A stretch of 20,000 nucleotides of DNA, taken from NCBI GenBank assembly GCA_000182565.2, contig KQ257454.1, one strand, 5' to 3'. Shown one piece after another: positions 2,528 to 8,280 of the stretch. A model generated the notes under the pieces. It ran no database searches and was not told the DNA's origin. It saw nothing but the letters and a program-made list of their open reading frames with translations. This DNA comes from Spizellomyces punctatus DAOM BR117. Its lineage: Eukaryota. Numbering within the stretch: position 1 is the stretch's first letter; every line of letters starts with the position of its first letter. The position numbers and the translations under genes are program-made.

Positions 2528-4220
2528 CTATCGACGACGCCGCTCACGGTGATCAGGACTCCGACTACGGCGTTCACGATCATGCCGATTATCCCGGTGT
2601 TCATACCTATGACTACTGTCCCGGTTACTCCGTCGGTCTCTGTCCCTGTCCCTATCTTTGTAGTCCTCTCGTCGATGATAGCTCGTATCTCTACGAGGCT
2701 CCCGTGATGGTCCCCTTCGGTCCCCATCAGCTTGTTCCCCATTGCCTCGTTCCCGTTGACCGCGGCGCTGCTTCTCAGCGTCGAGATTTCCCGAATGTTC
2801 GAAGACCAGATCGTATCCCTCATCCTCGCGATCAGCTTCCCCTCTGTAGCGTGTGCGTCTCTCTAGATTAGAGGATCCTCCAAAGCCCCCTTGGTTGCGC
2901 TTTGCCACTACAACATAGTCTTAATATCGCGTCTCATGCCACGGGGAATACATCGGTCCATCACTTACATAAAAAGTCCTGATGCAACTTTGATACACTC
3001 TGGGAAAAGTCAACATGGATACGCCGGTCATCAATCAACACGTTATCCATTTTAAAATACGCCTGCAATCCGCAAAAATTCATAAATGAATAATGGATAG
3101 AGCCGTGGTTCAAATGAACGGAGAGACTACCTCCTCGCATGACTCCTTGTTGTCAAATTCAATAAATGCGTAACATAATGAATCGCCAGACTTCTTGTCC
3201 CGCACCACCTCGCAGCTGCGACGAAGCAACATGTCAGTTCGATGATACTTCGTCACTATAGATATGAAATGTATACCTCAAAATGGTGCCAAATCGTGAA
3301 AAAATCAGCTCCAAATCTTCGTCTCGAGTGACCGGATTCAATTTACACACAAATAACACATTCTCCGGTGGTTTGATCTCAGCAAAGGGCAAATCGCCCA
3401 CCATTTCCAGAGTTAAAGCACGCGCCGCAGCTTCTTCCTGCCGTTGTCTCTTCTCGAGCTCTTCTGGAGGCAGATCGGGAACCAGTTCCTCATCCTCCCC
3501 GATTCGACCAGATTTAAGCATCTCTTCGGTAGGAACTGGAGAGCGATCTGGTATTATTATGCCTTCAGGATCGTCGAAAGGATCATCTAAGATGATAGTG
3601 TGTTTTATTCTGGGCCATAGGATTAGAGGTAATTACAGACAATGAGCCGCTGGCAGCGTTGTCCGTACCTGATGTCCCGATACGGACGCCCGTCCTCATC
3701 GCAAAGCGCCTGATTGATCTTGTCCAAGACATCCAGTCCCTCTACGACTTTCCCAAATACGGCATGTTTCCCATCCAGGTAGTCCAAATGGTTTTCTGAT
3801 AAAGTTATAAAGAATTGGGAACCAGCAACAGGAATGCCTGCTTCGTCCGCTGCTGTCGTAGCAAAAGAGACAGTGCCCTTCGTGCGATGCTTAAGTTTAG
3901 GATGTATTTCGGGGCTAAAGTAACGTCGAGCGGGTCCGTGGATGACCCTGAGCGGTCAGGTAAAGACAGACTTAGCAAATGTTCATCAAAAGAGCGCACC
4001 TCTTACAGTACACTTACCCCCAGACAGACTCACCGCCTTGCCCCGTTCCCAGAGGGTCTCCCGTTTGTGCCATAAAGTTCTTTTGGACATTATGAAAGAG
4101 GACGAAGTTGTAGTATTTTATCTTGCAAAGCTTTAGGAAGTTTGTGCATGCTTTTGGTGCTTTGGTCACCTCGAGGTCGATGACTATCTCCCCCAAAGAT
4201 GTTTCCAGTAATACAGACAT
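2528..4220 (-). CDS. PPIL4: PPIL4/Cyp59/Rct1-type cyclophilin-RRM protein with Arg/Asp-rich tail; exons 4220-4018, 3947-3669, 3609-3277, 3215-3131, 3062-2969, 2907-2528
   Basis: [16 protein letters not shown]...[37 protein letters not shown]...[58 protein letters not shown] (RRM); [29 protein letters not shown]-rich C-terminus. Confidence 0.95.
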
Positions 4221-4532
4221 TACCACCTCGGTTCGGATGTCTCCTTAGTTGCTGGGAGATCAGGGCGAACCCATAACAGGATATTGAGCGAGCCAGTTGC
4301 TATGTCAACAAATGCGCAGCAGCGGACCCAATTGCACCGATGATGTCCTTCTTGCTGCCGGGGTTTGCAGATAGCTGCCTATCCCCTCCTGTCCTCGTCT
4401 TCTATGCCATTAACTAACTGGCTGCTGTTTTGCATATAGGATGGGAAGGAGCTTTGTTATAGTGGGCACCTCTTTATAAACCATTGAGAACGCACTCTGG
4501 AATCAAGCGACATATCTAACTAGCACAACATC

Positions 4533-4847
4533 AAATATCTTCTATGATTACAACTCTCCGGATATGCCACAAACAACTGCTGCATAACCGCCTATGCAAG
4601 TGACTATACACCAATGCTACTCAGGTTGAAGGTGTTTGCGCCCAATACAGGGGTATTTTGTCTGGCACGGATGCGACTTCCAAGGTTACGTTCTGTGTTT
4701 TCCAGTAGTGATTGTTGTCATCCTGCTGGTTTGCTCTATGTGCATCGTAAGCCGCTTTGCAGGATAATATAGGCCCAGGGACAGAGATGAATTGGCTGCC
4801 TACTGAAGGCTAGCAATATCTGGGAGTTGGAATCATAGAAGATATTT
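4533..4847. repeat. Imperfect inverted repeat (arms of about 33 bp, 17 bp perfect) enclosing about 250 nt with internal hairpins
   Basis: 4533-4549 AAATATCTTCTATGATT is the exact reverse complement of 4831-4847 AATCATAGAAGATATTT; pairing extends via CAACTC(4551-56)/GAGTTG(4824-29) and GATAT(4561-65)/ATATC(4816-20). Confidence 0.85.
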
Positions 4848-5664
4848 AATCCTCAAGATCGTAGGGGAAGCTCGTCCCCAGTCAGATCGGCCTCTATCAG
4901 GAAAAACATCGCGTTCGGGGAGGATCCCAGCACTCCTACGAGTTGAGCGACGTGGCGAGCCAGAGTCACACCATGGGCATAACGTCACTCGACAAGGCAA
5001 AAGATAGTTCGTTTGGACACCTCGATCTTGCGAAAAGAAAAGATTCTGCTACCGCTCATGCACTGCAGCTTTCCTACGGCTTCCTACCACTACTGATTGT
5101 GGACTTTAAATAGACGATAAGTTGCCTCTGGGAATAGATCTGAGCATGAAAGATAGTTAATTTTGGAAAATAAAAGAATAAAAGCTTCAGAGAAGTTGAT
5201 GCAAGTTCAGACATTAATATTCATTATCCTTAAATCAAAGTGCTGGCTTGGCTGTGTATGTCATATTCATTGGGAACCTTATGAGTGACAAATGTTACGA
5301 ACCTATTAGCATTCTTTTCAACTTCCATCGAAACTTCAATTCCATTGGGAAGAGAAGATCTACTAGCATGAATTGTGCTTCACATCAAACCCAAATATAA
5401 AAGCTACATCTGCCTGCTCTGGGGGAACTTCCCAATTGATGCTTTATAACACCAACCAATGTTCATCATCTTGTTATGTGCGCATGAGCATACTCATTCG
5501 CCCAACATACTTATCGTTATCCTTGACCCTGCGTGCATATCGCAGCCAAGATGTCAAGCAGTTGGGAGCTGTGCCACTGGTTAGATCATTTCCAAGTTAG
5601 AGTCGTTGGAAAGCATGCGCAACCATGAGCCCGCCAGAACTCACCGTTGGGTGAAATCAACGCC

Positions 5665-6622
5665 ATGGTACAAAGCCTGAACTTCTCTAGTCTCGCCTCC
5701 ATAGGGAAAATAGTACGAAGCCCGTCTCTTCTGATCCCACATCTTTCTGTACCTGGTAGAAATGACCCATGCACTATGCTCTATCCGTCGGCTCCTTGCC
5801 CTAAACCCAGACCACTTGAATAGATATTCGGTATATAAACTTTATGGCCCTGAAGGCAGCTGGTATTCGGGCGGTGGTGTTTGATAAAGACAATACCATT
5901 ACTGCCCCGTATGTAGAACAGGTTCACCCTACTTTTGCGAAGTCTTGGGAAAGCTGCAAAGACACGTTTGGGCAGGACCGACTGCTTATTGTTTCGAATT
6001 CCGCTGGTACACCCGATGACGTGGGTCATAAGAAGGTAGCCCCTCTGCAAAGTTTGCGACCTGTCATTGGTAGTAATGTAGAATATCTATTCTAGGCTGC
6101 TACCGTGGAGGCCGCATTGGGTATGTCATCCTTGGGTATCGGTTCTCCTATTTGTTAATGCTCACATGAAAAGATAGGAATTCCAGTTCTTCGACATACA
6201 TTAAAGGTAACAGCTAGCTCTGATCATACATAAGCGCCGCTGGACGCTCAAACGGATACGCACATTACCCCAGAAACCAGCCGGAGGGGATGCGCTTTCA
6301 TCATACTTCGGCTGCCCTTCTCATTGCATAGCAGTAGTCGGTGACCGTGCGTTCACTGACATCGTTTACGGAAATCTCAACGGCATGCTCACTGTTCATG
6401 TCACCAAGATTGTGACTGAGGAAGGGGATAACAAAATCGCAGCGTTGGTAAGTCATTCAATAGCGGCTGCAGACCGTGTTGATCACCGCATGAATGTGCT
6501 CTGTGTAGATTCGAAAATTGGAGTACCCATTGGTGAACTGGCTAAGACAAAGGGGGTTATCACCTCCACACCATCCGGCATTTGAAAAGCATAATCCACA
6601 AGATTTTGTGCTGGAATCATAG
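5665..6622 (+). CDS. GEP4: Mitochondrial phosphatidylglycerophosphate phosphatase (Gep4/YqeG-like HAD IIIA); exons 5665-5755, 5824-6035, 6096-6120, 6178-6206, 6274-6447, 6509-6622
   Basis: MVQSLNF...PSLLIPHLSVPDIRYINF..LKAAGIRAVVFDKDNTITAPY (HAD motif I DxD), LLIVSNSAG (motif II), GIPVLRHTLKKP (motif III), VVGDRAFTDIVYGN (motif IV). Confidence 0.92.
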
Positions 6623-8198: not shown

Positions 8199-8280
8199 CT
8201 CCCAGACGGGGAATCGAACCCCGATCTTCCCCGAACTGCCTATTGACAGGGGGAGATACTAACCATTATACTATCTGGGA
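8199..8280 (-). tRNA. tRNA-Asp(GTC) with a 10-nt intron at canonical position 37/38 (intron 8234-8243)
   Basis: Minus strand TCCCAGA TA GTATAATGGTTAGTAT C TCCCC CT GTC A [ATAGGCAGTT] C GGGGA AGATC GGGG TTCGATT CCCCG TCTGGGA G; acceptor, anticodon and T stems pair; G discriminator base. Confidence 0.95.

Follow-up and report, generated by a model that had tools for sequence, protein, structure and literature searches.

The PPIL4-GEP4 spacer and its long-range stem

The window analysed here is a stretch of 20,000 nucleotides from Spizellomyces punctatus DAOM BR117, in which an intergenic gap (4221-5664) separates two divergently transcribed genes. On the left, a PPIL4-like cyclophilin-RRM gene starts on the minus strand with its ATG at 4220 and is transcribed away from the gap; its first coding exon (4014-4220) was taken from the list of open reading frames, and its later exons match the Pfam family Pro_isomerase, with a weak additional match to RRM. 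On the right, a GEP4-like PGP phosphatase gene starts on the plus strand with its ATG at 5665. Its 5' part (5665-6092) matches PF09419 (E 1.3e-19), and the nearest named relative of this exon is that of Geranomyces michiganensis, at 64% identity. The same region is covered collinearly by two contigs from a DNA run of a closely related organism, here called X9, and within PPIL4 exon 1 (4044-4134) all five listed substitutions relative to X9 share one codon position. The gap itself is non-coding and under no clear sequence constraint, since its divergence from X9 is intron-like, it carries indels of 1-2 nt, and codon periodicity is absent. A protein-coding gene within it was rejected on the latter two grounds and on the lack of a Pfam match for any of the eight gap ORFs tested. 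An 82-aa frame in the gap returned only summed weak matches to bacterial MBG repeats with phmmer, and the protein matches of the ORF at 4865-5110 were rejected (pairwise E 0.034). Elsewhere in the window, a tRNA gene on the minus strand (8199-8280) carries an insertion at its anticodon loop that is probably an intron.

The preliminary description of this gap had proposed a helix-rich RNA of about 0.8 kb (4340-5180) with an Sm site at its 3' end, possibly a telomerase RNA. All of the helices it listed (i, ii and iii), their inner hairpins, the Sm-like motif AATTTTGG (5159-5166) and the AATAAA hexamers are present, but helix (ii) is the only one of these helices that exceeds chance. Its left arm (4530-4565, plus strand) and right arm (4816-4850), delimited by inverted-repeat search, pair probabilities and folding, enclose a loop of 250 nt (4566-4815). 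The stem spans 36 columns at 88.9% complementarity, or about 33 bp, of which 17 are consecutive perfect pairs (4533-4549/4831-4847), as had been described. Its score of 44.6 bits compares with at most 27.4 when the gap was shuffled 150 times by mononucleotide, and its predicted pair probabilities reach 0.95-1.0. Stem and loop together fold at z -4.36 on the plus and -4.10 on the minus strand, while the loop alone (z +1.76 and +1.6, respectively) folds no better than chance and contains just a weak hairpin (4720-4765). The slightly longer hairpin at 4718-4767, chosen post hoc, reaches z -2.5.

As such, the idea of a helix-rich RNA of 0.8 kb finds no support, since one helix alone beats shuffled sequence; the interval 4340-5180 as a whole folds at z -0.60 (+) and -0.94 (-) in 20 shuffles. 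Sliding windows of 120, 200 and 330 nt, none of which contained both arms in full, gave no value below -2.4. Helix (i) (4346-4450) has a z of -1.8 and is unaligned in X9 over 4349-4414; it lies upstream of a TATAAA at 4475 on the plus strand, and if that box is used on this strand the helix would be promoter DNA, so that it is probably promoter-side sequence outside the RNA. Helix (iii) (4852-4947) has a z of -1.7, and its left arm is unaligned in X9. The G-U wobbles of helix (ii), which had been taken to point to the plus strand, are weak evidence: one pair works only on the plus strand (4560/4821) and one only on the minus strand (4532/4848), as read from the arm sequences, and these pairs therefore fail to fix the strand. 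The element is nearly strand-symmetric in its energy (-107.6 versus -98.1 kcal/mol). In the genome searched (24.1 Mb in 38 contigs) it is single-copy by both DNA search and arm pattern, although such searches may miss very common words. The arm pattern gave two exact matches, both local, and four matches with two mismatches versus three in the control.

Transcription of the gap is suggested, but not established. The TATAAA (4475-4480, plus strand), which also reads as a TATA box on the minus strand, stands 55 nt before the left arm and would set a transcript start near 4510. In the genome's three U3 genes and its MRP and SRP genes, a TATAAA precedes the RNA by approximately 30-45 nt, and the background frequency of this hexamer is 0.43 per kb per strand. 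From one raw RNA run, of which 6% was read (26.4 million records with a mean length of 39 nt), 23 records fall within the approximately 2 kb of 3880-5900, and the 5' parts of the flanking genes are covered equally thinly. Between 4628 and 5103 there are about 250 read-bases on the plus strand versus about 19 on the minus strand, taking the strand of the first mate as that of the RNA, as judged from the flanking genes. One plus-strand read lies inside the stem loop, and at the very low depth of this run no read bridges the two arms, nor does any contig demonstrated to be RNA. Two AATAAA hexamers (5169-5174 and 5177-5182) precede a possible 3' end at 5189, where six of seven molecules end, 15 nt after the first hexamer. 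However, the reads ending there appear to align over only some 18-20 A-rich bases each, and may therefore be misplaced short mates; eight records are just 90-95% alike. Accordingly, a poly(A) site at 5189 was downgraded.

The remainder of the gap may hold a second small transcript, on the minus strand of 5237-5644 and divergent from GEP4. This region has intron-like sequence from GTGAGT (5644) to CTAACCAG (5577), an ATGATGA at 5469, TATA boxes at 5448 (-) and 5396 (+), about 46 minus-strand read-bases, and the best-conserved long gap block relative to X9, with 27 changes in 265 nt. For the minus strand at 5240-5560, the U3 gene on the metagenome contig described below suggested a likeness to U3, which was rejected, with alignment scores of 27-29 versus shuffle means of 29-30 and a fold z of 0.07.

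The same region in related organisms

A metagenome scan with PPIL4 exon 1 yielded 176 confirmed loci, of which 80 were kept; 56 of these, mostly from distant eukaryotes and some of them redundant, had at least 600 nt upstream. Among the loci kept, the best PPIL4 match is that of the related, chytrid-like contig L041, with 82% identity in exon 1 and 73 of 92 identical residues in exon 2. Its gene has the same two intron positions, as read from the sequence, and the U3 on this contig resembles those of the S. punctatus genome. This PPIL4, too, is preceded by an inverted repeat, 34 bp long and perfect, whose loop measures 216 nt. The repeat lies 164-448 nt before the start codon, and the stem of the window 310-630 nt before its own. 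The L041 element folds at z -9.3 and its loop alone at +0.3. Among the 56 upstream regions, L041 is the only one with a repeat above 31 bits. Inverted repeats that precede PPIL4 in L054 and L096 are simple-sequence artefacts. The next neighbour of the L041 stem is U3, not GEP4, and no significant similarity was found between the sequences of the two loops (P 0.99 and 0.56; with the letters of X9 allowed, 0.58 and 0.87). A likeness of motifs between the loops that was seen by eye is not significant either. The upstream region of L041 has no DNA match in the genome of the window, and viral and prokaryotic collections, when scanned, yielded no relative of use. On the minus strand of L041 itself, a run of seven T follows the right arm (626-635), where the window has no T run, and at 450-600 a splice-acceptor-like site (CTAAT...TAAG) is followed by an open frame of 49 codons.

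How rare such repeats are was measured in the genome of the window, in 80 stretches of 10 kb (797 kb). With loops of up to 1 kb, this sample contains nine repeats of at least 28 bits, and five of at least 35 bits, the latter amounting to about 0.7% per 1.1 kb. These five comprise one 533-nt duplication, three members of one terminal-sequence family and one 20-bp stem. The duplication (L136:6818-8285) is inverted, with 91% identity and a 433-nt spacer, and the family (L176:2159-2918, L202:9108-9683 and L206:582-1327) shares a 30-nt terminal inverted repeat and is MITE-like. The remaining one (L199:766-949, or G000:C7:400766-400949), the sole short-armed repeat of at least 35 bits in the 797 kb outside the shared-terminus family, is a perfect 20-bp inverted repeat with a 144-nt loop; it stands right after a splice-donor-like GTACAT and downstream of a weak box C/D snoRNA match (E 0.013).

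A shared 8-mer provides a weak lead towards a promoter element common to both loci. The motif GAGCTTTG (4449-4456, plus strand) occurs 81 nt before the left arm in the window and 82 nt before that in L041, and it ends an aligned block in X9 (4415-4456). Its sharing has a P of 0.012 in 5000 shuffles, in one of four regions tested. A 7-mer that lies in register near the right arm of both (P 0.036) is broken in X9, and was discarded.

The alignment with X9 sets the arms apart from the sequence around them. Within the gap, X9 aligns at 4294-4348, 4415-4456 (3 differences in 42 nt), 4564-4819 (39 substitutions and 14 gap letters), 4917-5160 (33 substitutions and 9 gap letters) and 5237-5502 (27 and 19). 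The left arm thus falls inside the unaligned 4456-4564 and the right arm inside the unaligned 4819-4917. The segment of X9 that corresponds to 4456-4564 is 32 nt shorter, approximately the length of one arm. The ends of block 4564-4819 both lie within 3 nt of those of the loop. This coincidence was noticed after the fact; among 1122 placements of the element, three match the block ends this well, and 45 leave both arms unaligned. The loop differs from X9 by 15%, with indels in addition, and so has diverged at least as far as the PPIL4 intron, where 8 changes are listed over about 66 nt. Two further datasets were excluded as evidence: X1, with low-depth contigs that are unspliced over part of a GEP4 intron, and X11, with two pieces of 151 nt.

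Compensatory change within the loop was assessed from the 22 of its 39 block substitutions that were listed, or the first 15 in the best-helix test. On the plus strand, covariation is not significant, either against random placement (P 0.20-0.38) or in the best-helix test (0.54-0.81). The minus strand gave nominal P values of 0.01 and 0.03, on pairs with probabilities of 0.3-0.7, but this signal did not hold in the best-helix test (P 0.28-0.91 over both strands). A seemingly covarying hairpin at 4605-4638, in which five of six changed pairs are kept, has a P of 0.54 against random placement and was rejected.

Known RNA families and rival explanations

Searches with Rfam gave no family match in the gap, in line with the lack of U1, U2, U4, U5, U6, RNase P, MRP and SRP signatures in the preliminary description. 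At the gathering threshold only a tRNA is found in the window, and at E <= 10 the gap gives two chance matches. The models for U1, U2, U4, U5, U6, U11 and U12 were run over the window, whereas genes for U3 (three copies), RNase P, MRP and SRP RNA map elsewhere in the genome. Of the snoRNA signatures, the box C/D motif RTGATGA is absent on the plus strand of the gap, and H/ACA geometry, judged by eye, is confined to the 3' hairpin within the loop of L041 and does not occur in the window. An initial idea that SRP RNA is missing from this genome was dropped: Fungi_SRP finds nothing real, yet Metazoa_SRP matches a gene at G000:C1:2056154-2056446 with 151 bits. Similarly, the U3 genes (G000:C12:4344-4565, C7:269496-269717 and C1:1419532-1419754, and L041:3-215) score 52-64 bits against a Fungi_U3 cut-off of 95, which is why standard Rfam annotation misses chytrid U3 genes. 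Downstream of U3, at a distance of 20-85 nt, a 22-nt motif is invariant in two of the three U3 genes of the genome and in L041 (sites in L162:1390-1721 (-), L163:1501-1800 (+) and L041:299-320). Within this motif is a hairpin, TATG-AGGT-CATA, whose tetraloop is of the AGNN type and which resembles the Rnt1p signal in yeast U3 3' processing.

That the locus encodes a telomerase RNA or an Sm-bound, snRNA-like RNA is highly improbable. A TERT gene is encoded in the genome, our literature search surfaced no description of a chytrid telomerase RNA in the texts it covered, and the long enclosing helix recalls the core-enclosing helix (PMC4993307). However, the template with its alignment region is the defining part of a telomerase RNA (same source), and it is on the missing template that this reading fails. 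The telomere repeat, taken from arrays at contig ends, is TTAGGG, and no template of at least 7 nt occurs on either strand of the gap or in the upstream region of L041; matches to the telomere complement extend to no more than 6 nt in either region, the one in the gap being on the minus strand, in agreement with the earlier remark that a CCCTAA template is absent. No Rfam telomerase model matches the gap at E <= 10, although such models miss distant members. One telomeric array, at the start of contig C16 (L019:1-80), mixes CCCTAA and CCCTGA units. As for an Sm-class RNA, which has no Rfam match here, AATTTTGG occurs at chance level and lies in a segment unaligned in X9 (5160-5237): the background of such motifs is 0.17 per kb per strand over the 797 kb of genome, so that 0.25 would be expected per strand of the gap, and the sole Sm-like motif of L041 sits upstream of its stem. 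Even less probable, and largely refuted as judged from sequence comparison, is a MITE or other transposon of about 320 bp with terminal inverted repeats. Its size and terminal repeats would fit, and the genome does have such families (L176, L202 and L206), but the element is single-copy, its flanks are without a target-site duplication, and its interior is present in X9 in the same orientation. Because X9 carries this orthologous interior, the element is not a lineage-specific insertion.

The strongest rival, by contrast, and a real possibility, is that the stem is a neutral accident, in which a template switch during replication in this lineage copied one arm beside the other within a weakly transcribed spacer, the repeat of L041 having arisen independently as a small transposon or through another switch. 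The neutral divergence of the loop, without fold or covariation, would be expected from this, as would the segment of X9 that is shorter by about one arm and the lack of any sequence in common with the L041 element, and a one-step origin of long stems is documented (PMC8794818). Yet a single new arm should have left the ancestral arm alignable, and neither aligns in X9; furthermore, on this account another such rare repeat must have arisen in the corresponding position of the closest PPIL4 relative found. Less probable by far is a role in splicing, in which the stem, as a zipper or a helix between exon and intron, belongs to the long intron of a small transcript, non-coding or 5'-leader, where it would bring the 5' splice site closer to the branch point, or hide the branch point. 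A candidate intron (GTAAGC...TTTAAT...TAG, 4747-4864, plus strand), known from its motifs only, would contain the right arm and place it over the branch-point-like site, and with a GT at 4455 or 4461 the linker would fall into the range of 42-85 nt that PMC12350175 sets for zipper stems in yeast. On the other hand, these upstream GT sites are unlike the GTA with which the introns of both neighbouring genes start, one plus-strand read lies inside the loop, and the RNA run, at its very low depth, holds no spliced read or joint for this intron and no plus-strand read over 4696-4899. Very unlikely, finally, is a function at the level of DNA, as a cruciform or chromatin boundary between divergent promoters that is never used as RNA. 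The near symmetry of the stem between strands, the perfect repeat in L041 and the location near a promoter in both species are compatible with it, but the few RNA reads speak against it, and a spacer of 216-250 nt disfavours cruciform extrusion.

A duplex possibly kept without its sequence

We tentatively favour, at somewhat less than an even chance, the reading that the gap yields a weakly expressed, divergent non-coding RNA of Pol II with a long stalk that is maintained for its pairing, and that this RNA is probably a substrate of an RNase III- or Dicer-type enzyme. A low-abundance transcript would start near 4510, heading away from the PPIL4 promoter, and end near the AATAAA signals at approximately 5190. 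Its first 340 nt or so would fold as one stalk of 33 bp and a loosely folded loop of 250 nt. Selection would maintain the double-strandedness of the stalk and not its sequence, and the two arms may change together, for which template switching from one to the other would be the simplest route; this process can create and repair stems (PMC8794818). If the arms are rewritten in pairs, relatives should have a stem of different sequence in the corresponding position. The duplex would most likely be cut by the RNase III/Dicer family, which could set free small RNAs or the RNA that the stalk encloses, or bring about turnover of the transcript. Three loci of the genome carry two RNase III domains each, and chytrid Dicers are covered in PMC12663654. 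Since a stem with unrelated arms stands at the same place in L041, and the arms are unalignable in X9, selection for a duplex with free letters is the simplest account.

Several observations run against this favoured reading. The cross-species case depends on one metagenome contig, L041, and its loop and that of the window share no significant sequence and fold no better than shuffles, the loop of the window diverging neutrally from X9. Functional stems usually align better than their surroundings, and here the arms align worse, which is the opposite. Covariation is not shown, and the RNA amounts to 23 of 26.4 million records. A structured non-coding RNA at this locus, as initially proposed, is thus plausible but unproven: the single long-range stem, the sparse plus-strand reads and the stem of L041 speak for it, and what falls away from the original proposal are the many helices, the Sm site and the telomerase assignment. 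Rather unlikely is the more specific form in which a chytrid-specific RNA gene is co-promoted with PPIL4, only a stalk of at least 33 bp around 220-250 nt being conserved, with arms completely rewritten between species and the enclosed RNA, or small RNAs, released by an RNase III-family enzyme. Such an RNA would escape sequence and covariance searches.

Among known systems, the candidate can be compared with the fold-back precursors of RNase III, which include fungal milRNA precursors, plant miRNA precursors with large loops, hairpin RNAs and the stalks cut by Rnt1 and Pac1. Like these, it has a predicted long, near-perfect duplex in a putative Pol II-type non-coding RNA, within a genome that has RNase III genes. 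It differs from miRNA precursors, in which the sequence of the arms is conserved, whereas here they are the least alignable part. A further difference is that no AGNN tetraloop caps the stalk; an AGNN within the loop, at 4649, is broken in X9. The zipper stems of long Saccharomyces introns (PMC12350175) are likewise long-range helices that enclose a few hundred nucleotides and whose position can be conserved without their sequence, but the candidate splice sites that flank the present stem are weak and known as motifs alone. Like fungal telomerase RNAs (PMC4993307), it would be a long, fast-evolving, helix-bearing non-coding RNA, but it lacks a TTAGGG template, structural enrichment inside the stem and a conserved Sm site. 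Template-switch hairpins (PMC8794818) also have arms that are near-perfect reverse complements and arise or change blockwise; the hairpins there have local loops, and a spacer such as the 250 nt found here is raised only as a possibility. Our literature search, outside whose coverage subscription papers mostly lay, found no description of this locus, nor any on long-range stems cut by Rnt1p.

Either way, the locus drops off the list of telomerase RNA candidates for a genome that has both TERT and TTAGGG ends. If the stem is not conserved in position, it would be an ordinary chance repeat in a spacer. If instead its position is conserved across chytrids, it would represent an element of RNA that is retained for its long duplex alone. 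As such, it would allow a natural test of whether template switching maintains stems whose arms are separated by a long spacer, and the RNase III/Dicer enzymes of early-diverging fungi, which have been little studied, would gain a candidate substrate.
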